From the IMG/VR virus record IMGVR_UViG_3300048865_000005: a stretch of 64,000 nt of DNA, one strand, 5' to 3'. How positions within the stretch are numbered: position 1 is the stretch's first letter; each line of letters starts with the position of its first letter. Origin of the DNA: a virus. Taxonomy: Duplodnaviria; Heunggongvirae; Uroviricota; Caudoviricetes. Below are positions 8,774-41,008 of this stretch, in pieces. Made by a program: the position numbers and the translations under genes. A model generated the notes under the pieces. That model was not told where the DNA came from, made no database searches, and worked only from the letters and a program-made list of their open reading frames with translations.

Positions 8774-8774
8774 A

Positions 8775-16396: not shown

Positions 16397-16456
16397 AAGT
16401 TTTTTGAAAATTTCTAAAAAATCTTGTTGACGCTCTCGTTAGGCGATGGCAGTATG
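16397..16456 (+). promoter_or_regulatory. divergent control region: degenerate copy of the TTTTTTGAAA motif plus a weak sigma70-like promoter (TTGACG-N17-CAGTAT)
   Basis: AAGTTTTTTGAAAATTTC at 16397-16414. TTGACG at 16427-16432. Start of the rightward gene block. Confidence 0.3.
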
Positions 16457-16491
16457 CCGTCCCATCGAGCCTTGAGAAAAATGTCAACTTT

Positions 16492-16698
16492 TTGGAGAAC
16501 ATTGCTGTGAGAAGGGCTGTAGAGCTTGTAGGTGCAGGGTTAACGCTAGAGCTTTCCAAAGTGACGGCAGTTAGGACAAAACAAAAAATGATCCATTTTG
16601 ATGAATTACCAGATGGGACGTGGAGACTCATTTACAACGGAGAACAAATTCCAGATTTTTCGAAAATTACAGAATTTAAGATAGTTCGAGAAAATTAA
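16492..16698 (+). CDS. hypothetical protein
   Basis: 68-aa ORF. The real start may be GTG at 16507. Confidence 0.45.
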   Translation: MENIAVRRAVELVGAGLTLELSKVTAVRTKQKMIHFDELPDGTWRLIYNGEQIPDFSKITEFKIVREN

Positions 16699-16701
16699 AA
16701 A

Positions 16702-16908
16702 ATGGAAGTAATCCGTCAGCACGTAGGAATAATGAGTAAAGACGAATTTCAAGATTGGGTTGCTGGGCAAGAAGCTATCCGCGAGATAAGTAAATTTCTA
16801 TTCGGTGTCCGTGATGGTATCAGTGGTCGGGTGTTCGGTTACTACGCTCTGCTTGATTTGAGTCCCTTAGTTAAAGGTCAGAAGATAGTAGAGGTCGGTG
16901 GCCTGTGA
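16702..16908 (+). CDS. hypothetical protein
   Basis: 68-aa ORF. Confidence 0.5.
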   Translation: MEVIRQHVGIMSKDEFQDWVAGQEAIREISKFLFGVRDGISGRVFGYYALLDLSPLVKGQKIVEVGGL

Positions 16909-17318
16909 GAATTCCAGTACATTATTTGCCAAACCCATTCGAAGTGAACATTTTGGGAACGACTGAACAGCTTACTCGCTGGCACGTTTCTGAAGCAATC
17001 CGTAAGGGCATACAGAAGAGCTTACCTTTGCTACTAGACGAGGATTATTCTAATGTCTGGCTACATGCGTACAGAATTTCTTATTTCGTTTTAAACGCTG
17101 AAAAGCTACCGAAGGAACCTATTAAGGTAGACATTCAGCTCGCCCATGATGCGCTATCGTACACTTTGCCTGTAGATGGGTGGTATATTTTAGCAAAATC
17201 TATTTATGTGCTTGACAAGAGCATTGATGTAGTAGATGATAGGGAACTCTTGAGCCGAGTAATTAACCTACAAATTCTTGGGAGTTATGAAGAAATGTGC
17301 TTTCGGGGTGTAGTATGA
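16905..17318 (+). CDS. hypothetical protein (137 aa)
   Basis: ORF whose start overlaps the upstream stop. Confidence 0.55.
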   Translation: MRIPVHYLPNPFEVNILGTTEQLTRWHVSEAIRKGIQKSLPLLLDEDYSNVWLHAYRISYFVLNAEKLPKEPIKVDIQLAHDALSYTLPVDGWYILAKSIYVLDKSIDVVDDRELLSRVINLQILGSYEEMCFRGVV

Positions 17319-17485
17319 CTAGCTTTGTGCCCGTACCGCAGACGGAAAAGGTACAAGAGGTTGTGTGCATGACTCTAGCTGAGTTGAACGCGAAGCTGGA
17401 ACAGTCGAAACGGGAGGGGTATTCCGCAGGCTATTCGATTGGCTTTGAGGATGCAGTAGAGGAGTTTTCTAAATTTGGAGCGTAG
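17315..17485 (+). CDS. hypothetical protein
   Basis: ATG at 17315 overlaps the previous stop (ATGA). The ORF track gives a 17297 alternative start. Confidence 0.4.
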   Translation: MTSFVPVPQTEKVQEVVCMTLAELNAKLEQSKREGYSAGYSIGFEDAVEEFSKFGA

Positions 17486-17653
17486 TAGTTGGAGCATTTA
17501 ACAAAAGAAGAGTTACGCGGAATTCTTAATAAATTCCCGATTGAAGAATTAATGGCGATACAAGAGATAATCGAAACGATCCTAGAAGAACGTAATGCAG
17601 GTTTGTACCTGATAATGAAAGACGTTCTAAGCGGTATCAATTCGTCTGAAGAA

Positions 17654-17679
17654 AAATCCTAACTTTTTTGAAACATTTG
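17654..17679 (+). promoter_or_regulatory. conserved middle-block motif copy 1 (CCTAAC-TTTTTTGAAACATTT)
   Basis: One of 6-7 near-identical ~26-nt motifs preceding plus-strand genes. Confidence 0.5.
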
Positions 17680-17689
17680 AGTATAGGAT

Positions 17690-17929
17690 TTGAAGAAGAA
17701 GATTATTCATGTAAACCAACACAAAATTAGATCAAACGCAAAAGACGGAAAGACAGAACCAGTACTTACCGTCAAAACCTATAACAGCAATCAATATGCA
17801 CACGAAGTTGACATTATTGAAGCTGGTAAGGTTGTAGCAACAGTTAAGTATTCCCCTGATAAGCCTCTACCATGTGGAGCTAGAGTTTGGATTGAAACTC
17901 AGGCGGATGTGCTATTGCGTTTAATTTAA
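17690..17929 (+). CDS. hypothetical protein
   Basis: 79-aa ORF with TTG start and weak SD spacing, 10 nt after the motif. Confidence 0.45.
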   Translation: MKKKIIHVNQHKIRSNAKDGKTEPVLTVKTYNSNQYAHEVDIIEAGKVVATVKYSPDKPLPCGARVWIETQADVLLRLI

Positions 17930-17952
17930 TCTCAACTTTTTTGAAACATTTA
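17927..17952 (+). promoter_or_regulatory. conserved middle-block motif copy 2 (CTCAAC-TTTTTTGAAACATTT)
   Basis: Followed by AGGAG and GTG at 17962. Confidence 0.5.
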
Positions 17953-17961
17953 GGAGCTATT

Positions 17962-18276
17962 GTGCAAATTAGTTATGGTCTGCTGTCGGCTAGATTTTTT
18001 GTAAATAATGTTGGAAATCTTGTCCCTATAACTTTAAGCGAAAAGATTATTTATACCTACATGAAGGAACGTTGGATTACGTTCAACAGGAACGGTGACG
18101 AGTTCCTTGATACTGTAAACGAAATTGCAGAAGCTCTTAATGTGGACAGAAAGACCGTCATGTCAACAATCAAGAAGCTTACAGAGAACGGGGTGGTAGA
18201 AGGCTATAAGGGAAGATTAGGAAGTAGCAATAAGTGGATTTGGAATAATTTTAACGAGTTTACCCTGAGAGGCTAA
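17962..18276 (+). CDS. hypothetical protein, possible winged-helix DNA-binding
   Basis: GTG start with AGGAG RBS (the ORF track's TTG at 17941 lies inside the motif). KTVMSTIKKLTENGVVEGYK resembles a wHTH recognition helix. Confidence 0.45.
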   Translation: MQISYGLLSARFFVNNVGNLVPITLSEKIIYTYMKERWITFNRNGDEFLDTVNEIAEALNVDRKTVMSTIKKLTENGVVEGYKGRLGSSNKWIWNNFNEFTLRG

Positions 18277-18293
18277 CAGGAGCATTTAGAGGA

Positions 18294-18503
18294 GTGATTA
18301 TGCAGATTGATATTCGTGAAACAGAAGAAGAAATTAATGAGATTGTGTTTGCCGATGAGGGTTCCCATGCCCATACATTAACAAAGAGCCATTACACATC
18401 TATTCGAGATAACTGTGATTATGTGAATCTTTGTAATAAAGAACACGCTCTTAATTTGATTAAAGCTATCGAAAAAGCTATTGAGCTTGATTGGTTTGAG
18501 TAA
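18294..18503 (+). CDS. small protein, tandem paralog A
   Basis: IDIRETEEEINEIVF...NLIKAIEKAIELDWFE aligns with the next ORF. Confidence 0.55.
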   Translation: MIMQIDIRETEEEINEIVFADEGSHAHTLTKSHYTSIRDNCDYVNLCNKEHALNLIKAIEKAIELDWFE

Positions 18504-18512
18504 GGATTAATT

Positions 18513-18743
18513 ATGGAAATCGATATTAGAGAACATAAAGAAGAAGGAGAAATAACTAAGATTGTTTTTAGTGAAGACGATCCTTGTGTTTTTGCTGCAA
18601 GTTATATTGAAAACTACGGAAAAGCTTTTCCGCGTATATATGACGAAATGGGAGAACATCTTATGCTTCCATCTTCCGTCGAAGGTGTGGAGAACCTAAT
18701 TAAAGCGCTTGAAAAAGCTAAACAACTTGGTTGGTTTAAATAA
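18513..18743 (+). CDS. small protein, tandem paralog B
   Basis: IDIREHKEEGEITKIVF...NLIKALEKAKQLGWFK. Confidence 0.55.
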   Translation: MEIDIREHKEEGEITKIVFSEDDPCVFAASYIENYGKAFPRIYDEMGEHLMLPSSVEGVENLIKALEKAKQLGWFK

Positions 18744-18753
18744 AGAGATGTAA

Positions 18754-20484
18754 ATGGCACACGTTGTAGGGAAGGAACAATGTTGGAAATGTGCTAAAGA
18801 AGGTCGGGACAGGTCACAAAATAATGCAGCGGTTTATTCTGATGGTGGAATTTATTGTTGGAGTGGGCATGGCCTACTTAAGCCGGGTACTGAATCGCAA
18901 TTCTACAAAAAGGAAGAGGAAGCTTACGTAGAGATTATGGGTAGTATTTTTAACGAAGAGGTTCATGAGGAGTTAAAAGCAGTTACAGGTGTAGACCCGG
19001 CAGGGTTCCGGGGACTAACAAGAGAAACGTGTGCTTATTTCGGTGTGCGTCACGAGTACGATGCGACTACAGGTGAAGTCACTCGTCAGGTTTACCCAAC
19101 AACTATTAACTACGAAATTAGCGGTTATAAAAGTCGTCATATTCCTAAAGATTTTAGCAAACCTATCGGCATTACTGGTAGGGATTGCGAGCTTTTCGGA
19201 CAATTCAGATTCAAAAACTCTGTAGGTAAGTATGCTTTGTTGGTTGCTGGTGAGATTGACCAGTTATCCGGCTTCCAGATGTTACGTAACTATCAAAAGC
19301 AACGCGGCAATGATGCTTATGAAGCAATTCCGGTAGTTAGTGCAACATGTGGCGAAACAGGCGGTATTAACCAAGTACAAAAGCAATATGAATGGTTTGA
19401 CCGATTCGAACGTATTATCGTCTGTTATGACGCAGACCCAGCGGGAGAGGAAGCAACACAAAAGCTCTTGAAAGTTCTTCCGAAAGGTAAAGTATACATT
19501 ATGCGCTTGCCAGCCGGAGATAGTAATAAATATCTCGTGAATGGAAAAGAGAAAGAGTGGGTAGCAGCGTTTTTCAATGCACGGAAATTCGTTCCTGAAG
19601 GCGTTACTTCAAGTCTCGACTTAGAAGATAAGATGCTTGAGTACCTTAGTACTCCTCGTCTCAGTCTTCCGCCATTCATGCACAAGTTGCAAAACATGCT
19701 GTGTGGTGGTTTTCCTTATGACAGTATCGTTAATATTCTTTCGGCTTCTGGTACTGGTAAGTCCACTATTACAGACGCTCTAATCCTTCACTGGATTACG
19801 AATGAGAACGTTACTGTTGGTATTGTTTCGCTTGAAGCTTCTGAAGGGGAATATGCAGTTAACTTGAGTAGTCAATACTTGAAGTTCAAGATTAACTTAC
19901 TCGAAACTCCTGAAGAACGTATTGAGTTTATTAGTCGCCCTGAAAACATTGAGCGACGTAAACAACTTTGGCAGAAAGAGAATGGAGACCCGCGTTTCTA
20001 TCTGGTTGATGCTGATATTGATAACTTAAAGGCTAAGGTTGAATACCTTGTCCGTGGTTTAGGATGTAAAGTAATCGTGCTTGATCCATTACAAGATATC
20101 TTCGATGCACTGCCGGAAGATGAACAAGCTAAGTTCATGAAGTGGCAGAAAGACCTACGTAAGAGTGAAGGTATTATTTTCATCAATATCAACCACTCCC
20201 GTAAGTCTAGTAAGGGACAAAAAGCAAACAGTGCCGGTGCTGAACTTCATGAAGAAGATATGCACGGTCACAGCAGTATTTTTAAATCCGGCTCCATCAA
20301 CTTGATTGCGACCCGCGATAAAGAAAATGCAGACCCTATGATTAGGAATACGACAAAGCTAAAGCTAACAAAAGCTCGTGGTATTGGTAACACAGGGAAT
20401 GCAGGCGAACTTCTATATGTTAATGAAGAACATCAACTATATGACAAAGACGACTACATGTTAACTATGCAGGTAGAGTTTTAA
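18754..20484 (+). CDS. bifunctional DNA primase-helicase (T7 gp4-like, DnaB-family)
   Basis: N-terminal Cys cluster (CWKCAKEG...CWSGHG). TOPRIM-like acidic motifs (LVAGEIDQ, CYDADPAGEE). Walker A SASGTGKST. Walker B VIVLDPLQD. 576 aa. Confidence 0.8.
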   Translation: MAHVVGKEQCWKCAKEGRDRSQNNAAVYSDGGIYCWSGHGLLKPGTESQFYKKEEEAYVEIMGSIFNEEVHEELKAVTGVDPAGFRGLTRETCAYFGVRHEYDATTGEVTRQVYPTTINYEISGYKSRHIPKDFSKPIGITGRDCELFGQFRFKNSVGKYALLVAGEIDQLSGFQMLRNYQKQRGNDAYEAIPVVSATCGETGGINQVQKQYEWFDRFERIIVCYDADPAGEEATQKLLKVLPKGKVYIMRLPAGDSNKYLVNGKEKEWVAAFFNARKFVPEGVTSSLDLEDKMLEYLSTPRLSLPPFMHKLQNMLCGGFPYDSIVNILSASGTGKSTITDALILHWITNENVTVGIVSLEASEGEYAVNLSSQYLKFKINLLETPEERIEFISRPENIERRKQLWQKENGDPRFYLVDADIDNLKAKVEYLVRGLGCKVIVLDPLQDIFDALPEDEQAKFMKWQKDLRKSEGIIFININHSRKSSKGQKANSAGAELHEEDMHGHSSIFKSGSINLIATRDKENADPMIRNTTKLKLTKARGIGNTGNAGELLYVNEEHQLYDKDDYMLTMQVEF

Positions 20485-20495
20485 AGGAGAGACAT

Positions 20496-22931
20496 TTGAT
20501 TATAACGTGGGACCGGGAAACAACAGGACTACTAGACGAAACAGCGATTGATTACACAGCTATTCCGTATAAGCTTCGAGATTCATTCAAGACACATGTA
20601 ATTGTTGTTGAAGAGCACGAAACTAGAAAACTAATTGCTTTCTATGACGGTCCTACGTATATCTTGGACGGTCGCAAGTACGATGAAACTGATGGTGTAA
20701 ATCAATATGTTCTAGAGGACTACCAGCCTCTAGAGTATGAACACCGACCTCTTAAAGAATTTAAACCTTATATCGAAAGTAGTCCAATTGTTAAAGTTGT
20801 AGCCCATAACCAAATCAACTTCGACTTGCTTGTTGGAAAGCTCGAAGAGGGGATGGAATACACAATAGGGGAGGATACTTGGTGCGGTAAGCCAGTAGAG
20901 TTCGTAGACACGCTTGTAATGTCGAAGACGCTCAATCCTGATAGATACGGTGGGCACAGCCTTGACAAGCTGTCCGAAAAGGCAGGTGTACGTAAGGTCT
21001 CGTTCCGTAAGGAGGTACACGAGAGCGAGCGATTCAAGTTTTTTGCCGCTGACATGCTCTACTACTGTCTGTATGACGTAAAAGCCAATACAGCGGTCTA
21101 CATGATGCTTGAGGCCGAGAAAGGTAATTGGCCGTGGGCTGGTCCTATAGCTCTAGAGAAGGCTGTAGCCGATGTTATTACCCGGCAGAGTCATAGGGGC
21201 TTTTTCTTCGATAAGGACTTGGCTGAAAGCAACATACGTGAGTTGGATGCGCTTATGGAAGAGCGTAGGCAGCGGGTAGAACCTATCCTACCTAAACGCC
21301 CAGCTACACAGAAGTTCATGAAGGACTTTACGCCTCCGAAATTGCAGTTCAAGCAAAACGGAGAACCAACGTCGAACCTTCTAAAATTTGTTGAAAAACA
21401 TGGTGGAGAGTTCCTAGAAGGAAGGCAGGTAAAGCTTTGGGGGAACGTCTACAAGCTCCCACTCCCGAATGAGCCTTTAATCACGGAAATGGACGCCACA
21501 ATTGACGATACGACCCACATTAAGAATTGGCTTGTCGGTCTAGGTTGGAACGTCTCAGAGTACAAAGAGAAAGACCTGTCTGTAAACACTAAGAAAGAGC
21601 AACTTACTCTAACGAAGTTGGAAGAGGCTATTGATAGATATGTTGAACAGACTTTAAACAGTAACTTTTGTAAGGACCGATGCGACCACTTAGAAACAAC
21701 TCCTAAAAACCTCAAAAAGAAGTTGATGAGTTTTAGAGAGGGGCGGAAAATCAAAGTACTGACCAATCCAAGCTTCACAGTTGGTCAAGACAAGGAAATG
21801 GACCCAAATCTAAACGATATTATTAAGAATTTCCCATTTGCTAAAGATGTAGTTGAATACCTAACCTATAAACATCGTCGGAATAGTATTCTTGGTGGTG
21901 GTATTGATTGGGACGAGGATGAAGAACCAGAAAAAGGATATGTCGCTAACGTAAGGGAAGATGGACGTATTCCAACACCGGCAGATACTTGCGGTGCTGC
22001 AACTTCCCGGATGAAACATAAATCAGTTGCTAACATTCCTCGTGTTACTTCGTTATATGGTCCGAAGATGCGTGCATTGTTCGGTACGGATGACGATTGC
22101 CTTCAAATTGGATACGACTTCGATAGCTTAGAAGCTAAAGAGGAAGCCCATTATTGTTGGAGATACGATCCAGATAAAGAGTATTGCCATTCTCTTACAA
22201 TGGATAAGCCAAACGATGTACACACTAAAATGGCAGCACGTATTAGTGAGATTATCGGTCGTAAGTTCGCACGTTCTCCTGCAAAGAATGTGAAATATGG
22301 TTGCACTTATGGAGCACAGGCGGCAAAAGTAGCTAAGACGATTGGTAGCGACTTAACAACGGGTAATATTGTTTTCGAAGCGTTCTGGCAAGCAGCCTTC
22401 CCACTGAAGGAGCTAAAAGACCGTCTTAAGCATTATTGGGAAACTACAGGCGAGAAAAAATTTATCCTTGGGATTGATGGTCGTAAAGTTCCGACACGTT
22501 CTGCACATGCGATTCTGAACAGTTTGTTCCAGTCCGCAGGCGTTATTTGTGCAAAGCGTGCAATGGTGTTGCATGACCGTAAACTGAAGGCTGAAGGGTT
22601 ATCTGTAGACTTCTTTAGGGAGGATTGGAGACAGAAGGAATTCTGTCAACAGTTGATTGCGTATCACGACGAAGCTCAGCTTGAGGTATCAAAACGGTCT
22701 GTCCGTTTTAAGACTTTTGCAACTGAAGAAGAGGCTAAGAATTTTAAAGAATCGGAAAACAAGATTTGGTCAGACATTAAGCCAGCCAAAAACGGCGGTT
22801 TTTACGTTGCATACTGCCGTGCAGGTGAATTAGCTATCGAATCTGTAGTAGAAGCAGGTAGATACTATAATTTAAATGTTGACCTTTCCGCTGGTTATAT
22901 GCTAGGTCGAAATTGGAGAGATTGCCACTAA
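20496..22931 (+). CDS. family A DNA polymerase with 3'-5' exonuclease domain
   Basis: Exo I WDRETTGL. Exo motif YCLYDVKA. Pol motif A DFDSLEAK. Motif B K..KYGCTYGA. Motif C YHDEAQLEV. 811 aa. Confidence 0.85.
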   Translation: MIITWDRETTGLLDETAIDYTAIPYKLRDSFKTHVIVVEEHETRKLIAFYDGPTYILDGRKYDETDGVNQYVLEDYQPLEYEHRPLKEFKPYIESSPIVKVVAHNQINFDLLVGKLEEGMEYTIGEDTWCGKPVEFVDTLVMSKTLNPDRYGGHSLDKLSEKAGVRKVSFRKEVHESERFKFFAADMLYYCLYDVKANTAVYMMLEAEKGNWPWAGPIALEKAVADVITRQSHRGFFFDKDLAESNIRELDALMEERRQRVEPILPKRPATQKFMKDFTPPKLQFKQNGEPTSNLLKFVEKHGGEFLEGRQVKLWGNVYKLPLPNEPLITEMDATIDDTTHIKNWLVGLGWNVSEYKEKDLSVNTKKEQLTLTKLEEAIDRYVEQTLNSNFCKDRCDHLETTPKNLKKKLMSFREGRKIKVLTNPSFTVGQDKEMDPNLNDIIKNFPFAKDVVEYLTYKHRRNSILGGGIDWDEDEEPEKGYVANVREDGRIPTPADTCGAATSRMKHKSVANIPRVTSLYGPKMRALFGTDDDCLQIGYDFDSLEAKEEAHYCWRYDPDKEYCHSLTMDKPNDVHTKMAARISEIIGRKFARSPAKNVKYGCTYGAQAAKVAKTIGSDLTTGNIVFEAFWQAAFPLKELKDRLKHYWETTGEKKFILGIDGRKVPTRSAHAILNSLFQSAGVICAKRAMVLHDRKLKAEGLSVDFFREDWRQKEFCQQLIAYHDEAQLEVSKRSVRFKTFATEEEAKNFKESENKIWSDIKPAKNGGFYVAYCRAGELAIESVVEAGRYYNLNVDLSAGYMLGRNWRDCH

Positions 22932-22963
22932 GAGAAATAAATCCAAAATAGCTAAGAATATTG

Positions 22964-22992
22964 TTGACCATGCGGAAGTACATCTGTATCAT
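22964..22992 (+). promoter_or_regulatory. sigma70-like promoter (TTGACC-N17-TATCAT)
   Basis: ttgaccatgcggaagtacatctgtatcat, located between pol and the next gene. Confidence 0.45.
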
Positions 22993-23026
22993 TCATAACT
23001 TCGGTTAGGAAAAAAGTGGAACAATT

Positions 23027-23577: not shown

Positions 23578-23589
23578 CAGGAGAAGAAA

Positions 23590-24247: not shown

Positions 24248-24256
24248 GAGAAATAA

Positions 24257-24466: not shown

Positions 24467-24511
24467 ACTCTATTTGTAAAAATCTCTATAATTAAAAGGT
24501 AAATAATTTAA

Positions 24512-25504: not shown

Positions 25505-25525
25505 TGGTTTTTGTTCGTCCGCAAT

Positions 25526-25552
25526 AAATTCCTAACTTTTTTGAAACATTTA
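25526..25552 (+). promoter_or_regulatory. conserved middle-block motif copy 3 (CCTAAC-TTTTTTGAAACATTT) followed by a UUCG-tetraloop hairpin (25553-25570)
   Basis: Motif, then GCCCTTC-TTCG-GAAGGGC stem-loop, then AAGGAG RBS, then TTG at 25588. Confidence 0.5.
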
Positions 25553-25587
25553 GCCCTTCTTCGGAAGGGCACTTTAAGGAGAGTTAC

Positions 25588-27044: not shown

Positions 27045-28033
27045 GTCTAAAAGCAATTGTAGATACCGATTTTATAAAATATGCAGTAGCTTGTGCAGGC
27101 GAAAAAAGATCGATCCAAGTAATCCATAAGCAAAGCGGTAGAGAAAAAGAGTTCAAAACCCGTACAGAGTTTTACGGAAGAGATAAAAAGAAGTCAGGTG
27201 GTTGGTTAGGCGAGCTTAATAAGAATCGAACCTCCCCGTTTATGTTAGACGAATTCGAAATCGTCGATGTACAAACTCCCGAACCTCTAAACAACGTTCT
27301 CCACTCTGCAAAGTTAATGTTTCAGCGAACATTAGAGAAAGTCGGTACAACTAAATATAAAGGCTATATTGGAAAGGGTGATAGCTTCCGGGTAAACCTT
27401 TCCACCATCATTAAATACAAAGGCAATCGTGAAGAGACACTTCGTGCAGTATACATGCAGGAAGTTGAAGACTATCTAATTAAGAAATTTAATTTAGAAA
27501 CAGTAAGAGATTACGAAGCTGACGATGTATGTGTAATGGATTGCTATAAGAATCCTGATAATGTACTTGTCGGAGTAGATAAAGATTACGCTGGGCAACC
27601 GGTAAGGTGGTTTAATCCTAATAATCCTGATGTTGGTATTCAAGATTGCGATTGCTTCGGCAAGTTGTTCTTAAGTGCTAAAGGTCATGTTAAGGGAATT
27701 GGAAGAGCTTTCCTCTACCATCAGATAGGTAGCGGAGACTCTAGCGATAATTATAAAGCCAACTCTGCCAGTGAGCGTGCATGGGGAGATAAGAGTTCAT
27801 TCGATATTCTTAGCCAAGCCACAAACGATAAGGAAGCTCTAGAGGGGTTGGTTCGAATCTACAAGGAAGAACTCTACCCTGAACCCGTAATGATTAAGGG
27901 TTGGCGTGGTGACGAGTTCGAAGTCGATTGGCTGTACGTTCTCGAAGAAAACTTTCAAATGGCACGCATGAAGCGATTTGAAGGCGATGATGTGTACATT
28001 AAAGAAGTTCTGCAAAGGTTCGGTCTCTTATGA
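27041..28033 (+). CDS. 5'-3' exonuclease / flap endonuclease (FEN, RNase H-like)
   Basis: N-terminal AIVDTDFIKYAVA (compare LLVDGSSLAFRA). YEADDV (GYEADDVIA motif). VLVGVDKDYAG (TxDKD motif). Confidence 0.65.
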   Translation: MSLKAIVDTDFIKYAVACAGEKRSIQVIHKQSGREKEFKTRTEFYGRDKKKSGGWLGELNKNRTSPFMLDEFEIVDVQTPEPLNNVLHSAKLMFQRTLEKVGTTKYKGYIGKGDSFRVNLSTIIKYKGNREETLRAVYMQEVEDYLIKKFNLETVRDYEADDVCVMDCYKNPDNVLVGVDKDYAGQPVRWFNPNNPDVGIQDCDCFGKLFLSAKGHVKGIGRAFLYHQIGSGDSSDNYKANSASERAWGDKSSFDILSQATNDKEALEGLVRIYKEELYPEPVMIKGWRGDEFEVDWLYVLEENFQMARMKRFEGDDVYIKEVLQRFGLL

Positions 28034-28611
28034 TTCCGAGCCAAGCAGATATTGAGAAACGGCAAGCCAATCTCGCTAAGTTTCTGAAGCAAATCGATCC
28101 AGTCACAGGCAAAGCCCCTGAAAAGACAATGGTACAGGTTGTACGCAGTGCCATACGTCAAGCATGGATGAAGAGTCCGACAAAGTTAGCGTATCTGTAT
28201 CAACACACAGAGGCAGATATGGATAACAACACACGTACTAAATGGAAAGTACGGTGTGAGATTTGCGGTGAACATTTCAAAGTAAATGAAGTTGAGATTG
28301 ACCACATCAGAGGCAATCACTCATTCACGCGTGTTGAAGATTTTGAAGATTATTTTAACAACATTTTGATGGTTGGTTTTGATGATCTTCAGGTTCTATG
28401 TAAAGACGGTTGCCATGCAATCAAAACATTATCTGAACGTCTTGGTATTACTTTCGAAGAGGCAAAAGTGGAGAAGGAAGTAATCGAAATATGTAAGACG
28501 AAGAAAGATAAAGACTTCATTAAAAAGAATGGCCTAATTCCTGAATCGAATGCAGATAAGAGGAGGGCACAAGTAAGGAGAATACTTAGTGACAGTACGG
28601 AGAAAAAGTAA
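28030..28611 (+). CDS. HNH endonuclease (homing-endonuclease-like)
   Basis: CEICGEHF...EIDHIRGNH...DGCHAIK matches the HNH CxxC/DH/N/CxxCH arrangement. Confidence 0.6.
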   Translation: MIPSQADIEKRQANLAKFLKQIDPVTGKAPEKTMVQVVRSAIRQAWMKSPTKLAYLYQHTEADMDNNTRTKWKVRCEICGEHFKVNEVEIDHIRGNHSFTRVEDFEDYFNNILMVGFDDLQVLCKDGCHAIKTLSERLGITFEEAKVEKEVIEICKTKKDKDFIKKNGLIPESNADKRRAQVRRILSDSTEKK

Positions 28612-30818: not shown

Positions 30819-30910
30819 CCCTGTATACTTCACCACAAGCACTGCTGATTCAAATTCATTTCCGTGGCTGGTCTTGATGATGACGCAGTGCTAGTTTTTG
30901 CCTAAAGAAA

Positions 30911-30938
30911 AATAAGGACTTTTTTGAAACAATTTAAT
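30911..30938 (+). promoter_or_regulatory. conserved middle-block motif copy 4 (AAGGAC-TTTTTTGAAACAATTT)
   Basis: Variant upstream half. An ORF start (TTG 30924) lies inside the motif. Confidence 0.45.
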
Positions 30939-31184: not shown

Positions 31185-31257
31185 GTAGCAACCAAACATT
31201 AAATAGCATAGCTATGTATCCTCAGATTAAGAGGGAGGAATAACTGTGCCTGATAGA

Positions 31258-31285
31258 AAAAACTCAACAATTTTGAAACATTTTA
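31258..31285 (+). promoter_or_regulatory. conserved middle-block motif copy 5 (CTCAAC-AATTTTGAAACATTTT)
   Basis: Followed by AAGGAG and GTG at 31301. Confidence 0.5.
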
Positions 31286-33184: not shown

Positions 33185-33185
33185 G

Positions 33186-34540: not shown

Positions 34541-34546
34541 ATAATA

Positions 34547-34930
34547 ATGGATAAGGCAATTAGCTTTTATACACTAATGCAATACCCGCCTTTTAAGGAG
34601 GCGGTAGAGAAAGAAGATACAGAAACATTTAATAAGATTATTCATGCATCAGGTATCGATACAGACCTACCTTTCGAAATAGTTGTATGCACTCATCGAC
34701 CTAATGCAGAGAAGCCTTTCACGTGGAATGGCCCACGTGTTGAAGGTATTGAACGTACCGATGAAGTCTGGATGAAGAGTAGTAACTGTTCCTTTGAAAA
34801 CAAAGTAGAGCAATCCGACGATAAGTCACTACGTGTAGAACTTAAGGTAATGAGTCGTGAAGGAAACTTTACAGGAAATATTATCGATCACATGAAGCGT
34901 CACCGAAAAGTATTAGCAAAAGGTTTTTAA
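34547..34930 (+). CDS. hypothetical protein
   Basis: 127-aa ORF between thyX and the RNR genes. Does not look like NrdI. Confidence 0.5.
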   Translation: MDKAISFYTLMQYPPFKEAVEKEDTETFNKIIHASGIDTDLPFEIVVCTHRPNAEKPFTWNGPRVEGIERTDEVWMKSSNCSFENKVEQSDDKSLRVELKVMSREGNFTGNIIDHMKRHRKVLAKGF

Positions 34931-35931
34931 TGGATTTTAATCGTAAAACAAAGATTCAAACAAAAACAGAAAGTTACGCAAGACACTATCCCACTATTGT
35001 TGAATTAGCAAACAAGCAACTAGAAGATCAATTATGGTTTAACTCTGAGATGATTGTAGAGTTAGACAAAATGCAACTTCTTTATGAATTGACACCAGCA
35101 CAATTACATGCTGTTAAATACGTACTTCAGCTTTTCCTACGGTATGAACTTATCGTAGGTGAAGAATTCTGGAACTCTCTTGTAATTAAAGAGTTCCCAC
35201 GTCCTGAAGTAAAACTTGCTGCAAGTATTGTAGGCATGATGGAGCTTGCAGTTCATGCAGAGTTCTACAACCAAATTAATATTGTATTAGGACTAGATAA
35301 AGACGAAGACTATGTAGCTTATACGAACGATCCTGAGCTAGCCTCTCGTGTTGAATGGTTGGACGAGATTCTTACAGGGGAAGATAAGGTACTAGCTACA
35401 ATCATCTTCTCTCTGACTGAAACTGCACTTCTGTTTAGTTCGTTCGCTATTCTGAAGAGCTTCCAGTCTAACGGCTTTAACTTGATTCCGGTTATTGCTC
35501 GTGGAGCGAATCAGTCTGCAATTGATGAAGACCTGCACGGCATTATCAGTGCGGAAATTATTAATACACGTTATGCAGAACTTGGTGCAGCTCTAAAGGA
35601 TGACAAGAGACGTGTAGATAAGATTTATGAGGCTGTGTTCTTTGTATATGGGCACGAAAGCCGGATTATTGATAAGGCAATTATTGAAGACTCTTTTAAT
35701 GGAGTTAAAAAGCAAGAGTATAAAGAGTTCGTAAAGAGACGCCTAAATATCTATTTGGAGCGTCTTGGCCTCCCCCCTGCATTTGAAGAAGGCGATTGCA
35801 GTATTAAGGATTGGTTCGAAACTAATACTTACGCCTACAAAGTTATTGATTTCTTCTCTCCCGGTCTCGGTATGGAGTACGAAATGGGCTGGAAGAAGGA
35901 ACTGTTTACATCTGCATGGGAGGATAATTAA
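34930..35931 (+). CDS. ribonucleotide reductase small subunit (R2, ferritin-like)
   Basis: Iron-ligand motifs MMELAVHAEFY (E..H), SLTETALLFSSFA (E), AIDEDLHGIIS (E..H). Confidence 0.75.
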   Translation: MDFNRKTKIQTKTESYARHYPTIVELANKQLEDQLWFNSEMIVELDKMQLLYELTPAQLHAVKYVLQLFLRYELIVGEEFWNSLVIKEFPRPEVKLAASIVGMMELAVHAEFYNQINIVLGLDKDEDYVAYTNDPELASRVEWLDEILTGEDKVLATIIFSLTETALLFSSFAILKSFQSNGFNLIPVIARGANQSAIDEDLHGIISAEIINTRYAELGAALKDDKRRVDKIYEAVFFVYGHESRIIDKAIIEDSFNGVKKQEYKEFVKRRLNIYLERLGLPPAFEEGDCSIKDWFETNTYAYKVIDFFSPGLGMEYEMGWKKELFTSAWEDN

Positions 35932-35933
35932 GA

Positions 35934-37667
35934 GTGATTGATTTTAGTGAGATGCGTAAACGCCAACAAGCGGAAGGAGAAGTTCCGCCTTGGTTTACTA
36001 CAGGCGGTTTACAGCTTTTCCATAATAAATACGCGTACAAGGGCGAGACGGTTAGTAGCCGCTTCCGCACTATTGCAAAAGCAATGGCAAAACATGCTCC
36101 AAAAGTCATGCCTTCGTTTTGGGATACAGACCCATATACAGCCGGTAAGAGTTGGGAAGATGTTTTCTTCAATACTATGTGGGATGGCTTTATTAGCTGT
36201 TCTACTCCACTATTGGCAAACGGAGGATTAAGACAGCGTGGAACTACGGTTAGTTGTGCAGGTGGTTATGTTGGTAATAATTTATTTGATCGTTATAACG
36301 CTATAACCGAAGCTGCGATTCTTACGAAACACAGTCATGGTACAAGCTATAGTATCGATCATTGGCCGCACGAAGGGGCCGAACTGCGTCGTGGTGGTCG
36401 TAGTCAAGGTGTAATGCCTATCGTTCATTCCTTTATTGATGTAATGGAAGACGTTACACAGGGAAGTCGTCGCGGTAGTTTGGCCTATAGTATTCGTCCG
36501 CAACATCCAGATTTCGAGAAAGTATTAGATCACCTATACAAGCGTACTGAGTCTAATAATGTCGGCTGGTTGATTGATGATGAGTTTCGTCGCCTCCTGA
36601 ACGACAAAGACCCAGAGATTTTCGATAAATTCCAAAAGATTCTTGGCGTTAAGATGCCTCGCGGTAAGGGTTACTTTACTTTCATCGATAAAATGAATCG
36701 CCACCTTGCCGAAGCATTCCGTCGAAAGGGTTTGACTGTCAAAGCTTCAAACTTGTGTCAGGAGACATGTCTAGGTTCGGATGAGCGTTACACCTTTAGT
36801 TGTGTGATTCTTAACTACAACTTGGAGCTATACCGTTCGTGGCCTAAGTATCTGGTGTTTATTGGTCAGGTAATGTCTGACTGCAATATTTCAGAATACT
36901 TGGAAACGATGGATGAGATGAGCGAGCTTGACCGCATTGCTCTGACCAAAATCTACCGTTTTACTAAAGAGTTCCGGGCACTCGGTAGTGGTGTTCTTGG
37001 CTGGCATACGTTGATGCAGAAAGAGCGTATCAGCGTAAGTAGCTTGCAGTGCATGTTTTTGAACGATGAAATCTTCCGTCATCTGGACGAAGAATCGCTA
37101 AAGGCTTCCCGTTGGCTAGCGGGTGTGCTGGGAGAGCCTGAAGGTTGTGCTGGTTTGGGTATCCGTAACGCTACCCGGCTAATGATGCCTCCGACGAAAT
37201 CTACCGCTGAAATCATGGCGGGGGCTTCTGAGGGTATCGGCCTTGATCTAGGGATGGCTTTTACAAAGCAATCAGCAGGCGGTGAGTTCTTCCGTATCAA
37301 CAAAGTGTTGCTTGAGTTGATGAAAGAGAAGGAAGTGTTCTCTGATGAGAACGTTAGACAGATCGTAGACGCCAAAGGCAGCGTACAGCAAGTCGATTGG
37401 TTGACAGATGATGAGAAAGCAGTATTCCGAACGGCTTTTGAAGTCCCGATGGAAGACTACCTACGCCTGTGTTCTCGGCGGCAGAAGTACATTGACCAAG
37501 CACAGTCAATCAACCTGTACTTTACGTCTAATGACTCCGAAGAATACATCAGCAAAATTCATAAATTGGCTTTTGAGGATGAGGGCATTCTGAGCCTGTA
37601 TTACATCTATTCCATGCGTGGGGCAGGTCAAATTACCCGCGTAACGGACTGCGAAATGTGTCAATAA
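35934..37667 (+). CDS. ribonucleotide reductase large subunit (short form without obvious ATP-cone)
   Basis: Catalytic NLCQE motif (NxCxE). C-terminal CEMCQ cysteine pair. 577 aa. Immediately downstream of R2. Confidence 0.65.
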   Translation: MIDFSEMRKRQQAEGEVPPWFTTGGLQLFHNKYAYKGETVSSRFRTIAKAMAKHAPKVMPSFWDTDPYTAGKSWEDVFFNTMWDGFISCSTPLLANGGLRQRGTTVSCAGGYVGNNLFDRYNAITEAAILTKHSHGTSYSIDHWPHEGAELRRGGRSQGVMPIVHSFIDVMEDVTQGSRRGSLAYSIRPQHPDFEKVLDHLYKRTESNNVGWLIDDEFRRLLNDKDPEIFDKFQKILGVKMPRGKGYFTFIDKMNRHLAEAFRRKGLTVKASNLCQETCLGSDERYTFSCVILNYNLELYRSWPKYLVFIGQVMSDCNISEYLETMDEMSELDRIALTKIYRFTKEFRALGSGVLGWHTLMQKERISVSSLQCMFLNDEIFRHLDEESLKASRWLAGVLGEPEGCAGLGIRNATRLMMPPTKSTAEIMAGASEGIGLDLGMAFTKQSAGGEFFRINKVLLELMKEKEVFSDENVRQIVDAKGSVQQVDWLTDDEKAVFRTAFEVPMEDYLRLCSRRQKYIDQAQSINLYFTSNDSEEYISKIHKLAFEDEGILSLYYIYSMRGAGQITRVTDCEMCQ

Positions 37668-37675
37668 CCCTTGCA

Positions 37676-37708
37676 CCCTGCATCGAAAGATGCGGGGTTT
37701 TCTTGTTT
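37676..37708 (+). terminator. rho-independent terminator after the RNR operon
   Basis: CCCTGCATC-GAAA-GATGCGGGG hairpin followed by TTTTCTTGTTT. Confidence 0.6.
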
Positions 37709-37817
37709 GCGTAAAAAATCACAAAAAACCTGTATTAACCTATTGACCGATTCGCTTTCCATCTCTATCATTGCACGACTGTTAAGCGAAATATCCCGAC
37801 TTTTTATTGGAAATTAC

Positions 37818-38024
37818 ATGACAATTCAAATACGACCTTCCTTACGGGAGGGGTTAACGTCCTACTTAGTATCTTTAAGCAGCAGCATGAGCTATTACGA
37901 TAAGGAAATTGATGAGGCACGATTCGCTTGCAATTATGTTTATGCTAATAAATTAGAAGTGGAAAAGACCTTACTTAAGGCTCATATAAGCACATTGGCA
38001 AATCTCATGAAGCGTTGTGCTTAA
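37818..38024 (+). CDS. hypothetical protein
   Basis: ATG at 37818 (the ORF track's 37671 alternative would read through the terminator hairpin). Confidence 0.4.
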   Translation: MTIQIRPSLREGLTSYLVSLSSSMSYYDKEIDEARFACNYVYANKLEVEKTLLKAHISTLANLMKRCA

Positions 38025-38218
38025 TGGTACAGATAGTTTCTCCGCCTAAGTTAAGGCAAGCGACATGTAACAGATGTGAGGCTGTAATGACTTACGACCG
38101 AAATGAAGTTCGCTACTTTGATAGAAAGGATTACACAGGAGATAACGAGCGCTGCCATTATATTGTTTGCCCATGTTGTACAAACTCGGTAATTGTTGGT
38201 AGAGGTTATTATTACTAA
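38015..38218 (+). CDS. zinc-ribbon protein
   Basis: CNRCEAV...CPCCTNS, two CxxC pairs. Confidence 0.45.
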   Translation: MCLMVQIVSPPKLRQATCNRCEAVMTYDRNEVRYFDRKDYTGDNERCHYIVCPCCTNSVIVGRGYYY

Positions 38219-38409
38219 TGGGTAGGATTATTTGTATAACTGGTAACTTCCCAATTATCAAAAATGGGTACATAACCCAACTGACAGAGTTCGTTGTATC
38301 TCATGGTGTTGATGAAGATACATTCGAAAATGTCTGTCTTCCATGCGAGCATCCTAAGAATCTAGGAGCTAAATTTGATCAAAATATCGGAGAGTGGGTT
38401 CTAGAGTAA
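38218..38409 (+). CDS. hypothetical protein
   Basis: 63-aa ORF. Confidence 0.45.
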   Translation: MGRIICITGNFPIIKNGYITQLTEFVVSHGVDEDTFENVCLPCEHPKNLGAKFDQNIGEWVLE

Positions 38410-38563
38410 ATGTATCCCTTAGAGGACTTCATACCTTTCGATGGTACGGTTAAAGACGGTAATCAAGTAGTGCTGGTTTGGAGTCAACGGACAGGTTACT
38501 ACTTTGTACAATACGGCTTTACCGCTCTTTCAGATTTAAAAATTATTGCCAAACAGAAATAGA

Positions 38564-38806
38564 ATGCACCATACATCATTAAGTCATCCGAACACACAAG
38601 CTAAAATAGAAACAGCGATTATTAATTGTCTTTGTCTAGCAGAAGAATACGAAGAAAAAGGTATTGATTCAGTACGAAACAGGAAAGGTAAAGAGTTCCT
38701 TCGTATTGTAGCGCATCCAAGTAAAGAAATATTTGCATATGATCTAGACGGGAATGAAGTTACAGAGTACATTTCTGAACTTATTGAACATATAGAAAGG
38801 CATTAA
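38564..38806 (+). CDS. hypothetical protein
   Basis: ATG at 38564 (ORF track 38546). Confidence 0.45.
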   Translation: MHHTSLSHPNTQAKIETAIINCLCLAEEYEEKGIDSVRNRKGKEFLRIVAHPSKEIFAYDLDGNEVTEYISELIEHIERH

Positions 38807-38811
38807 ATTTC

Positions 38812-39147
38812 GTGAAGAATTCTCAGCAAATCCAGCATCTCTTAGGTATGGCTAGAAGTGTCAGACTATTTGATAAAGGAGACATGACGCAGTTGCGTAG
38901 AAACTTCATAGCGAAGGCAATACAGTTGCGTAATGATCGAATGGGAGTTGTATCGAAGCCAGTAATTAAAACCGAGTCTACGAAGTCGGTTGTAGTGAAA
39001 CCTGTAGAGCCTGTAGTAGAGGAAGAAGTAGTAGAAGCTCCTCCTGCAAAATCTCTAGCTCAGCAGATTGCAGAGCAGGCACTAAATAAAGCCAAACGTA
39101 AGCAGAGAGCTAAACGCGGTGAAGAACAATTAGGATTTGATGTATGA
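38812..39147 (+). CDS. hypothetical protein
   Basis: 111-aa ORF. Confidence 0.45.
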   Translation: MKNSQQIQHLLGMARSVRLFDKGDMTQLRRNFIAKAIQLRNDRMGVVSKPVIKTESTKSVVVKPVEPVVEEEVVEAPPAKSLAQQIAEQALNKAKRKQRAKRGEEQLGFDV

Positions 39148-39362
39148 ACATAAATTCTTTAAAAAGATTTATAAACCTTCCAGACGAAGACACTCAAGAT
39201 ATCTATAAGATAATCATAGAAGATGCAGAACAAGATAAAAGCGTCTGTGCTTGTCCAGACCTTCTTGAATATCAAATACAATTACTCATAGAGGACGGTT
39301 ATACGGTAAAGAAAGGAAAGAAAGACCGTGAAACTCAATGGTATTTGATAAGTGGCTGGTAG
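39144..39362 (+). CDS. hypothetical protein
   Basis: 72-aa ORF. Confidence 0.45.
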   Translation: MNINSLKRFINLPDEDTQDIYKIIIEDAEQDKSVCACPDLLEYQIQLLIEDGYTVKKGKKDRETQWYLISGW

Positions 39363-39385
39363 ATGAGGATGTAACATCTTAATAA

Positions 39386-39616
39386 ATGACTTACGAAGAA
39401 TTTAAGAAAGCTTGGATCAGTCAGTCACTAGAAGAGCATGTAGCATTAAGTAAAGGCTACGTAGACACTTCAAACAAAGATAGTTTAACGAAATGTTTTT
39501 CAAGTCTTTTTGATTGGATATATCCTGCACAATTTAAAGAAAACTATGAAGCTAGTTTAGCAACTGGTGAATTACAAGAAAGAATACTTAGGGGGTTTCT
39601 TGAAACAATCAATTGA
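39386..39616 (+). CDS. hypothetical protein
   Basis: 76-aa ORF. Confidence 0.45.
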   Translation: MTYEEFKKAWISQSLEEHVALSKGYVDTSNKDSLTKCFSSLFDWIYPAQFKENYEASLATGELQERILRGFLETIN

Positions 39617-39947
39617 AGTTGATTTGAAGTGGTATCATTTCAGTCAAAACAACAGTGGTGGCTATTTCATCCAAAACGATACAGTAGCAGAAGATGTATT
39701 TATTCAGGCTACATGTGAAGAAGAAGCTTGTCGGATAGCTTCAGATTTGTTCGAAGACTATTCAGATTATTGTGAATGCTGCGGAGAGCGTTGGTCGTAT
39801 TACTATATCGAAGAGGCTGATGTTCCTTCGCGTTATGGTGTCCCGATTACAGAAAAGTACGACCGTTGGGGAGAAGATGCTTACGCAGTATTGCACCACT
39901 ACGACAACACAGTAACTAAGTTCTACCCAAATCAGAAGGAGATTTAA
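39600..39947 (+). CDS. hypothetical Cys-rich protein
   Basis: TTG at 39600 with GGGGG RBS (ORF track 39567). CxC/CC cluster CECCGERW. Confidence 0.4.
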   Translation: MKQSIEVDLKWYHFSQNNSGGYFIQNDTVAEDVFIQATCEEEACRIASDLFEDYSDYCECCGERWSYYYIEEADVPSRYGVPITEKYDRWGEDAYAVLHHYDNTVTKFYPNQKEI

Positions 39948-39948
39948 T

Positions 39949-40287
39949 TTGGATATACGCAAGTCAAAGTTTCGGGTAAGCAGTTCTGAGCAAAGCGAAG
40001 AGGTGCAAAAGTGGTTGTTTACCCAAGGCTGTGCATGGTTCTTGGATACACAAGATTGCCGCCCTAATACCGTAAGACATATTAATGGAGAGTTTCTGTA
40101 TGTTTGTGATGAAAAGTATATTACTTATGGAGGTTGTGAAGACCAATTCTACAAAAAACCTTATAAAGAATTGTCTTTGGTCATAACATATACACCGCAC
40201 TATACAATAGTAGAAACAGAAACAGTTAAAGTGTTAGGTAAAGTAGTTAATAAAAAATTTCTTGAACAGTTCCTATCCCAATTCTGA
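39949..40287 (+). CDS. hypothetical protein
   Basis: 112-aa ORF. Confidence 0.5.
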   Translation: MDIRKSKFRVSSSEQSEEVQKWLFTQGCAWFLDTQDCRPNTVRHINGEFLYVCDEKYITYGGCEDQFYKKPYKELSLVITYTPHYTIVETETVKVLGKVVNKKFLEQFLSQF

Positions 40288-40295
40288 GTAATTAA

Positions 40296-40982
40296 ATGAA
40301 TAGTAATAAAGTGTTCAACTCTCAAATAAGAGAAGTTGGTAGCTTCGCTACGCATGTAAGTAATGAACAAATTAAATTAGAACCAATGTTCTTTAATTGT
40401 GATTTGGATTATGCCTACAGTAACGGAGGACTAATTACAAAAGCATTCATAGATACACTTCCAGCTTATTGGTTTCTAGAAGATTGTGTCTTTGATAGTC
40501 GTGTACACATGCTAATGCCGGGGTGGTATCCGGCGATTCCGGGATTTCACCACGACGACGTACCACGTCCAGATATTCCAGTAGGGCAGCACTTTATTAC
40601 AGCAGGGCAACCAGACTACGACAATCCACGATACTACTCGGAACACATCTTAGGGTTAGTTAACGCGGACGTTTGCCCGACAGAGTTTGCTCTAGGTACT
40701 GCCGAGTTCTCACGTATCCCGGATGGTGAATTGATCTACCGGAAATGGCACGAAGAGGTATTGAATCATCTCGAAGCGGGACGAATGGAGCGCTACACCG
40801 CAAAAGACCGCACGCTAATTGAAATGGACTGGCAAACATTCCACCAAGGGACGGCAGCAGTAAGTAACGGTTGGCGATGGTTTGGACGAGTGAGCCGACA
40901 CACCAATAGGGTGAAGAAAGTAACTAACGAAATGAGGCAGCAGGTACAAGTGTACTTGGAGTTTCCTATGGAGGGATGGTAA
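40296..40982 (+). CDS. hypothetical protein, possibly cupin/2OG-Fe(II) oxygenase-like
   Basis: H-x-D (GFHHDD) and a distal His (TFHQG) about 110 aa apart, plus RVSRH. Speculative. Confidence 0.4.
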   Translation: MNSNKVFNSQIREVGSFATHVSNEQIKLEPMFFNCDLDYAYSNGGLITKAFIDTLPAYWFLEDCVFDSRVHMLMPGWYPAIPGFHHDDVPRPDIPVGQHFITAGQPDYDNPRYYSEHILGLVNADVCPTEFALGTAEFSRIPDGELIYRKWHEEVLNHLEAGRMERYTAKDRTLIEMDWQTFHQGTAAVSNGWRWFGRVSRHTNRVKKVTNEMRQQVQVYLEFPMEGW

Positions 40983-41008
40983 ATCCCAACTTTTTTGAAA
41001 CAATTTGG
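40983..41008 (+). promoter_or_regulatory. conserved middle-block motif copy 6 (CCCAAC-TTTTTTGAAACAATTT)
   Basis: Followed by GGAGG and TTG at 41016. Confidence 0.5.

Follow-up and report, generated by a model that had tools for sequence, protein, structure and literature searches.

The element and its gene context

The DNA analysed here is a stretch of 64,000 nucleotides (nt), referred to as the window, from IMG/VR virus record IMGVR_UViG_3300048865_000005 (Caudoviricetes), and its subject is a motif of approximately 28 nt that is repeated in front of rightward genes. The 88.3-kb metagenomic contig Logan SRR35925424_36083 contains the window, identical, at positions 18575-82574; both missing ends were recovered, giving a genome of 88,311 bp. 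Runs SRR359251xx-SRR359254xx are among the samples that the phage comes from. The phage is an uncultured myovirus with no close relative in the deposited phage collection. Its DNA polymerase shares ~60% identity with the enzymes of Otagovirus-like Pseudomonas phages and 57% with those of rV5/phi92-like phages (best match 61%, at the protein level), and the gene order also agrees with that of Rheinheimera Barbavirus phages. The genome consists of five blocks, i.e., a short leftward block, a rightward nucleotide-metabolism block, a long leftward block of small early genes, a rightward replication block, and a leftward structural block. The motif is confined to the two rightward blocks: six copies lie in the replication block (window 16.4-44.6 kb), and two lie outside the window, at window -11629 and -7600, in the nucleotide-metabolism block, which includes HD-domain, dCMP deaminase, and cpYpsA genes.

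The six copies within the window had been noticed in an earlier reading of the letters alone (hereafter, the sequence-only reading) and are indeed present where that reading placed them, all on the plus strand. Copy 1 (17651-17678; GAAAAATCCTAACTTTTTTGAAACATTT) is followed, 11 nt on, by TTG 17690, the start of a 79-amino-acid (aa) phrog_8676 gene. Copy 2 (17924-17951; ATTTAATCTCAACTTTTTTGAAACATTT) has its left edge on the stop codon of the upstream open reading frame (ORF) and AGGAG directly 3', after which GTG 17962 opens a gene for a winged-helix protein. Copy 3 (25524-25551) carries a 1-nt insertion in its left half and is followed by a hairpin, AAGGAG, and TTG 25588 of an accessory gene for a 189-aa, VWA-like protein. 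The hairpin (25553-25570, plus strand; GCCCTTCTTCGGAAGGGC) thus separates copy 3 from its ribosome-binding site and may have a stabilising role at the 5' end or be a terminator remnant; relatives have a hairpin and a T-run at roughly the same junction. Copy 4 (30907-30934; GAAAAATAAGGACTTTTTTGAAACAATT) lies 3' of a conserved gene for an SbcD/Mre11-like exonuclease subunit, with ATG 30949 next, and copy 5 (31256-31283; GAAAAAACTCAACAATTTTGAAACATTT) precedes AAAGGAG and GTG 31301 of a 178-aa DUF3310 gene. Copy 6 (40978-41005; GGTAAATCCCAACTTTTTTGAAACAATT) overlaps the TAA stop of gene 40296-40982 and is followed by GGAGG and TTG 41016. The genes directly 3' of the copies are mostly accessory genes that have no homologues in relatives and are set between conserved core replication genes. 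In copy 1 only (17654-17690), the left-half sequence AAATCCTA is complementary to TAGGATTT just 3', so that an 8-bp stem around the core is possible.

Number, conservation, and placement of the copies

The window has exactly six occurrences of the 13-mer TTTTGAAACAWTT, none of them on the minus strand. With up to two mismatches this 13-mer has 20 window matches, compared with 10.8 +/- 3.5 in shuffled sequence (none of 100 shuffles reached 20), and the 12-mer TTTTTTGAAACA with up to one mismatch has eight matches against 1.5 expected. A repeat search placed the six window copies in one 38-nt family. A weight matrix derived from the motif copies and run over the rebuilt genome returned exactly eight sites, scoring 29-46 bits, with the next-best site at 13 bits; there were no matches inside genes or on the other strand. 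The whole-genome search that the sequence-only reading had called for thus places all eight sites upstream of plus-strand genes and none elsewhere.

The consensus is GAAAAATCYCAAC-TTTTTTGAAACAWTT, in which 13 columns are invariant across the eight copies. The near-invariant contiguous stretch covers 18 bases, to which a conserved A-rich left half is added, and the invariant core at the right side is GAAACAWTT. Weak conservation of a GC-containing, TGCCT-like element is seen ~10 nt further 5'. The repeat itself stands as first described, but at ~26 nt its length had been underestimated. The copies are dispersed over the two blocks at distances of 273 nt to ~25 kb. A proposed degenerate copy at 16397-16414 (plus strand) is not a member of the family: it scores 8.9 bits, which is background level, and is an AT-rich, UP-like stretch 5' of a sigma70-like promoter at 16427-16455. 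A weak look-alike just 3' of that promoter, which heads the block (16474-16504, plus strand; GAGAAAAATGTCAACTTTTTGGAGAACATTG; 10.8 bits, with a 1-nt indel in the core), is uncertain and probably not functional as a motif copy. On the minus strand, window 6481-6514 and 6651-6684 are two copies of a 43-nt duplication, each ahead of a small early ORF. The left half of the duplication (GCCTNNRAAAAATCC) resembles the left half of the motif and its upstream flank and the right half differs (TTTYTATCAAA); it may be a diverged or related signal.

All eight copies lie on the plus strand, in plus-strand gene blocks and in gaps between ORFs, in a genome that is ~91% covered by ORFs. Each fills a minimal gap from a stop codon to the next Shine-Dalgarno sequence. 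In copies 2 and 6, the left edge shares bases with the preceding stop codon, and in four of the eight copies the Shine-Dalgarno sequence begins 0-3 nt past the right edge. Six copies end 10-17 nt before the start codon, one ends 26 nt and one 36 nt before it, which bears out the intergenic position near start codons that had been described. A GGAG-type ribosome-binding site immediately after the motif had been reported for three cases, and these are window copies 2, 5, and 6.

The TTG starts that appeared to lie inside the motif (17941, 30924, and 40995) are artefacts of a first-start rule, since better starts with a preceding Shine-Dalgarno sequence lie downstream (GTG 17962, ATG 30949, and TTG 41016, respectively), and the start-codon calls of at least three genes are corrected in this way. 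GTG 17962 is additionally supported, as the start of the winged-helix gene, by domain coverage and paralogue alignment. The other part of the same claim, that the motif fixes the 5' end of the message or leader, is very probably right, given that in half of the copies only 0-3 nt separate the motif from the ribosome-binding site; a message that carries this site would have to begin inside GAAACAWTT or a few bases past it. If the motif is a promoter, it would therefore cover roughly positions -24 to +4.

Comparison with related phages and databases

The relatives compared were L054, L055, and L049 (~60-66% protein identity) and Barbavirus Barba35A. No analogous repeat was found in any of the four, in which k-mer motif discovery and reading of the gaps revealed sigma70-like promoters only. 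In L054, L055, and Barba35A, the gaps of the replication module carry TTGACA-N17-TAnnnT promoters. Such a promoter occupies the relatives' gap after the SbcD/Mre11-like phosphoesterase gene, where copies 4 and 5 are found in this phage. In the gap after the DNA polymerase gene, a sigma70-like promoter is present both in the relatives and in this phage. A protein search with the exonuclease for intermediate relatives gave next-best matches of only 61-62% identity.

An exact-motif scan of IMG/VR yielded 42 matches, which are single copies in unrelated, mostly very AT-rich contigs; those inspected look coding (FFETF). The same scan of metagenome contigs yielded at least 120 matches, and among the matches listed all are likewise single and in unrelated, mostly very AT-rich contigs. 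Because only single, unrelated occurrences were met (for the metagenomes, among the matches listed), the motif is considered lineage-specific. A literature string search for the motif core returned unrelated primer sequences only. The kind of signal is most likely a familiar one, and the motif sequence has no counterpart in relatives, in IMG/VR, or, among the matches listed, in the metagenomes.

Host-type promoters and the signal classes considered

The early block contains ~11 copies of a stereotyped promoter, TTGACT-N17-TATAAT, on the minus strand of window 170-8780 (e.g., 5498-5471, 4780-4752, 4081-4053, 3561-3533, 1220-1192, and 202-174). Since these early promoters are stereotyped and close to consensus, the host polymerase should be an ordinary sigma70 enzyme. 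Three sigma70-like promoters lie on the plus strand of the replication block, i.e., TTGACG-N17-CAGTAT at its head (16427-16455), TTGACC-N17-TATCAT after the DNA polymerase gene (22964-22992), and TTGACC-N17-TATCAT at 37743-37771, just after an intrinsic terminator (37675-37698) behind the ribonucleotide reductase genes. In consensus scans, sigma70-like sites are under-represented in the block that carries the motif, and no motif copy is flagged, in agreement with the earlier statement that the motif does not fit sigma70 -35/-10 spacing.

If TTGAAA of the motif is taken as a -35 element, there is no conserved -10 element at 15-19 nt 3', and the start codon would precede the transcription start. 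Because no -10 element fits 3' of the motif, both this assignment and a classical upstream activator site are excluded; the middle or late activator site envisaged by the sequence-only reading, at least in its classical form, cannot work with a start codon so near. An extended -10 geometry (TG-A-AACAWT, the hexamer having A2 and T6) is present in all eight copies. Transcripts of such a promoter would start 6-8 nt further on, which in copy 2, copy 6, and the copy at window -7600 is at GGAG or beyond it.

For an extracytoplasmic function (ECF)-type promoter (TGAAAC as -35 with a CGTA-type -10), no conserved partner occurs at the proper spacing and starts would lie past the start codons. Sigma32, sigma28, and sigma54 promoters likewise lack a conserved partner at the right spacing, and sites for integration host factor (IHF) or Fis and UP-elements are poor fits, all judged by eye against consensus sequences. 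The motif is not an intrinsic terminator, because its T6 run has no conserved hairpin ahead; copy 6 alone was flagged, with a 5-bp stem. RNAalifold predicts zero pairs as the consensus RNA structure of the motif, and no Rfam family matches it at gathering thresholds (a scan of the genome at these thresholds returned two tRNAs only, away from the motif). Origin-type iterons are also rejected, given that the copies are dispersed over two blocks and are not clustered direct repeats with helical-phase spacing.

Among phage signals, the T4-type late promoter sequence TATAAATA, expected at -10, is not in the motif. A MotA-dependent, T4-type middle promoter is unlikely, as no MotA_activ, MotCF, or AsiA match was obtained at E <= 1e-3. 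The motif is a contiguous block of high information content with a start site placed from geometry. A T7-like RNA polymerase promoter is unlikely, as no RNA polymerase family is found among the ~150 ORFs scanned from the complete genome.

Search for a protein that might read the motif

Pfam and PHROG scans of ~150 non-structural ORFs, out of roughly 190 ORFs in all, revealed no RNA polymerase, sigma factor, MotA, or AsiA, although very divergent analogues of MotA or AsiA might exist. Thus, the idea that a phage-encoded RNA polymerase reads the motif has become unlikely, and the suggestion that a polymerase, sigma, or activator gene might lie elsewhere in the genome yielded no recognisable candidate of these types. 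The largest proteins without assignment have 432, 423, and 330 aa. The 423-aa early protein was considered as a cryptic polymerase and rejected: it has no Pfam or PDB match, and Barba35A, the sole carrier of a homologue that was examined, does not have the motif. The structure model of a 137-aa protein of the first operon had a predicted local distance difference test (pLDDT) score of 34 and was unusable.

The winged-helix gene directly behind copy 2 (17962-18276, plus strand) encodes a protein of 104 aa that matches HTH_36, DUF6945, DnaD_N, and the N-terminal part of the PHROG 'replication initiation protein' families. A longer winged-helix protein of 162 aa, initiator-like and 33% identical, is encoded outside the window (L056 3284-3772 in genome coordinates, minus strand), and the 104-aa protein is its short paralogue. 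Four iterons (TACAYATGAAAWWWTTYC; genome 3808-4031) abut the gene of the 162-aa paralogue, three in tandem at 23-nt spacing and the fourth ~180 nt away by the gene start. The divergent region in which they lie (L056 3780-4033) also contains the short repeats TCTGTATTACTAT (three copies) and GGAYTCATACCAAA (two copies) and is likely a replication origin or control region. In Barba35A, the long form likewise has its own iterons at 23-nt spacing, in an array upstream of gp083. The winged-helix family is present as a single copy in 143 of 143 matching phage records.

Because the short paralogue is lineage-specific, like the motif, and because the family keeps sites 5' of its own gene, the 104-aa protein is a reasonable candidate for binding the motif, and it is proposed, with low confidence, as a putative reader or regulator. 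Iterons and motif have a weak core in common, TGAAA-NN-WTT. Its stricter form, TGAAA-NN-WTTT, has 12 matches in the genome against four expected and fits only half of the motif copies (four) and all but one of the four iterons. The structure model of the 104-aa protein is mediocre (mean pLDDT 65), and it matches generic winged-helix regulators only (E >= 0.1).

Interpretation and alternatives

We regard it as about an even call that the motif is a compact, phage-specific transcription-initiation signal and represents a second promoter class, probably the 'middle' one, dependent on a phage factor. Points in favour are the number, strand, and position of the copies, the sharp score gap, the tight geometry, the lack of a consensus RNA structure or Rfam match, the poor agreement with sigma70 scans, the repeated promoter cassettes of the early genes, the sigma70-like promoters of relatives in comparable gaps, the accessory nature of the genes behind the motif, the winged-helix gene behind copy 2 with its iteron-associated long paralogue, and the precedent of Pseudomonas phages 14-1 and YuA. 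The early leftward genes use the ~11 consensus sigma70 promoters, and the three sigma70-like promoters head or punctuate the rightward block. Transcripts from the motif would begin in or a few bases after GAAACAWTT, perhaps at the C-A step. A contiguous element from -24 to +4 would not be expected to be read by the unmodified sigma70 holoenzyme, and since the genome contains no recognisable RNA polymerase or sigma factor, the host enzyme would have to be redirected by a phage factor expressed from the sigma70-driven genes. The candidate reader, the 104-aa winged-helix protein, would control its own gene via copy 2 and might either be a specificity factor or repress from the start site. Most of the genes behind the motif are lineage-only accessory genes set among conserved replication genes. 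A more elaborate form of this scheme, in which most internal sigma70 promoters of the replication and nucleotide-metabolism modules were replaced by the ~28-bp element and the host polymerase is guided by a new kind of specificity factor, which could be a truncated duplicate of the initiator winged-helix domain, recruited for transcription and autoregulated from copy 2, seems to us a distinctly unlikely one.

Several observations weigh against the motif being a promoter. This status is deduced from sequence and geometry, and what might link the winged-helix protein to the motif is adjacency and paralogy only. Neither a sigma factor or RNA polymerase nor a MotA or AsiA homologue emerged from the Pfam and PHROG scans. 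The extended -10 element (TG-n-AACAWT) formally fits, although transcripts would then begin at the ribosome-binding site or past it, and the near-constant distance of 10-17 nt to the start codon would equally suit a translational or leader signal. The hairpin right after copy 3 would be odd directly behind a promoter. Moreover, the nearest relatives (~60% protein identity) do not have the motif, and all available samples of this phage are 100% identical.

One alternative is a signal at the RNA level. Long polycistronic messages would be supplied by read-through from the sigma70-like promoters at 16427, 22964, and 37743, and single-stranded AAC-UUUUUUGAAACAWUU would act beside the Shine-Dalgarno sequence in one of three roles: as an enhancer or operator of translation that is bound by ribosomal protein S1, for example, or by an RNA-binding protein of the phage, as a specific endonuclease processing site, or as a conserved 5' leader. 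The motif is U/A-rich, predicted to be unstructured, and strictly on the sense strand, and it ends 0-3 nt from the ribosome-binding site in half of the copies and 10-17 nt from the start codon in six of the eight, all of which would be expected of such a signal. However, known S1 enhancers and T4 RegA-type operators are far less sequence-specific than this motif with its 18 contiguous near-invariant bases and conserved A-rich left half. Occlusion of the ribosome-binding site would also not be uniform, because two copies lie 26 and 36 nt from the start codon, one of them with a hairpin in between, and neither an RNA-binding regulator nor an Rfam match was identified. An RNA-level signal thus appears unlikely, albeit worth keeping in mind. 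The motif might instead be an operator only, bound by the 104-aa paralogue or another phage regulator that blocks or modulates passing transcription, as a timer or autorepressor, with no promoter inside it. The position of the winged-helix gene directly behind copy 2, the phage-specific repeated sites that the family holds just 5' of its own gene both here and in Barba35A, the lineage-specific nature of both the short paralogue and the motif, and the weak TGAAA-NN-WTT core common to iterons and motif all point in this direction. Nonetheless, 28 asymmetric base pairs are more than a winged-helix monomer or dimer needs, and a roadblock requires neither strict orientation nor placement before the ribosome-binding site. 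The shared core is weak, fitting half of the copies and three of the four iterons in its TGAAA-NN-WTTT form, and the structure model and fold matches indicate a generic winged helix and nothing more. We consider a purely operator role doubtful.

The motif could also mark a cassette boundary, i.e., be a repeat that marks, and maybe promotes, the insertion or shuffling of accessory genes, which would be compatible with a promoter role; promoter-stem-loop cassettes are known from T4-type phages. Such a role would account for the accessory nature of the downstream genes, which lie between conserved core genes and are without homologues in relatives, and for the restriction of the repeat to this lineage (among the matches listed). 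It is very improbable, given that the repeat is found on the upstream side of gene clusters only, its flanks contain neither extended homology nor target-site duplications, and no recombinase is associated with it. Two homing-endonuclease-like genes are encoded, GIY-YIG/T5orf172 in the early block (14306-14983, minus strand) and HNH in the replication block (28030-28611, plus strand); neither is adjacent to a copy.

Comparison with known promoter systems

The T4 middle promoter consists of a MotA box at -30, 12 +/- 1 bp 5' of a sigma70 TAnnnT -10 element, and depends on sigma appropriation by MotA and AsiA. The proposed likeness is that of a second class for replication and nucleotide-metabolism genes, served by host polymerase that early phage proteins redirect; there is also a weak TGCCT-like element ~12 nt 5' of the hexamer YAACTT, whose A2 and T6 are kept in six of the eight copies. 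Unlike in T4, conservation in this phage is strongest in an uninterrupted stretch at or past the predicted start and not at -30, the hexamer in the -10 role is a poor one, and MotA and AsiA were not detected. The SPO1 gp28 middle promoters (AGGAGA-N17-TTTNTTT) belong to a phage of a Gram-positive host. If the start is the C-A of GAAACA, the T-run of the motif occupies the would-be -10 position, as in the SPO1 consensus, but there is no AGGAGA-like -35 element or gp28-like sigma factor, and the early promoters of this phage are of the classical TTGACT-N17-TATAAT type. In its form, i.e., one contiguous, high-information block of ~20-28 bp with the predicted start in the 3' part and few dispersed copies, the motif resembles the promoters of T7/phiKMV-type RNA polymerases; however, the sequence is unrelated, and no such polymerase gene is found in the 88-kb genome.

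Other parallels come from Pseudomonas phages. Phages 14-1 and YuA, which have no RNA polymerase of their own, carry non-sigma70 motifs at starts mapped by Oxford Nanopore (ONT)-cappable-seq, in ~9-11 copies per genome, and the two 14-1 promoters tested gave no activity in E. coli reporters, presumably for want of a phage factor (PMC10914365). These motifs are likewise short, conserved, unlike bacterial promoters, and near the start, in phages without their own polymerase. They differ in that the sequences (14-1 core CTGGG, ~5 bp from the start) and the phages are unrelated, and in that their starts were mapped experimentally, whereas the start in this phage is placed by geometry. For phage phiPMW, nine weak 26-nt intergenic 'operon promoter' candidates were described, with no sigma or polymerase-modifying factor identified (PMC5587285). 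This phage encodes a homologue of the winged-helix protein (33% identity), and one 26-nt candidate lies 22 nt 5' of that gene. The phiPMW candidates differ in sequence (TAGTTTCNNATATCAANAGANNCTTG) and have only three invariant positions, compared with 13 in the eight copies described here.

If the motif is a promoter, it would mark the temporal middle class of an uncultured myovirus lineage that is distant kin of Barbavirus, Otagovirus-like, and rV5-like phages. As the relatives, at ~60% protein identity, use host-type promoters at comparable places, this would be, if true, a clean natural replacement of one promoter class by another within one virus family. It would also indicate a route by which host polymerase is redirected without a sigma or polymerase gene, and an element that is silent without phage factors could be used as a 28-bp orthogonal expression part. 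If it is an RNA-level leader, it would be an unusually sequence-specific one.

Other features of the genome

The early promoter cassettes have a near-palindrome (TTATAAGTRCTTRTAA) across the -10 element, which looks like an operator for a dimeric repressor, and conserved CATCAA further 3'. The 423-aa protein mentioned above (phrog_4756; 14984-16255, minus strand) is encoded by the first gene of the leftward block. Its homologues are found only in Vibrio, Aeromonas, Rheinheimera, Pseudoalteromonas, and ICP1-type phages, a range that may point to an aquatic gammaproteobacterial host. The gene of a Cro/C1-type HTH_37 protein lies at 7883-8200 (minus strand). Outside the window, at L056 1967-2624 on the minus strand, there are two very strong sigma70 promoters with an extended -10 element (TTGACA-N17 ending in TGn, then TATAAT), each of which is followed by 200-280 nt without an ORF; these stretches may be small RNAs or long leaders.

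Repeats similar to CTTATTGAAGCAAGTGCTTCAATGCTTGCTT flank a ParA-like gene (10274-10927, phrog_164) within window 10074-13022 and may be a partition site or another protein-binding array. A Lys/Ala-rich protein of 220 aa is encoded nearby (11369-12031, minus strand). Highly expressed structural genes (tail fibre, tube, sheath, capsid, and terminase) have a similar A/T-rich leader (AATAAYAGGATAATAATAAAA) upstream, with a weak AGGA Shine-Dalgarno sequence; leaders of this type lie at window 50587-50615, 60579-60619, and 61649-61677 and on L043 beyond the window end, and may act in the translation of late genes or as their promoters. Three tRNA genes (Tyr-GTA, Asn-GTT, and Ser-TGA) adjoin the terminase end of the contig, outside the window (L056 44-209 and L043 60-147).

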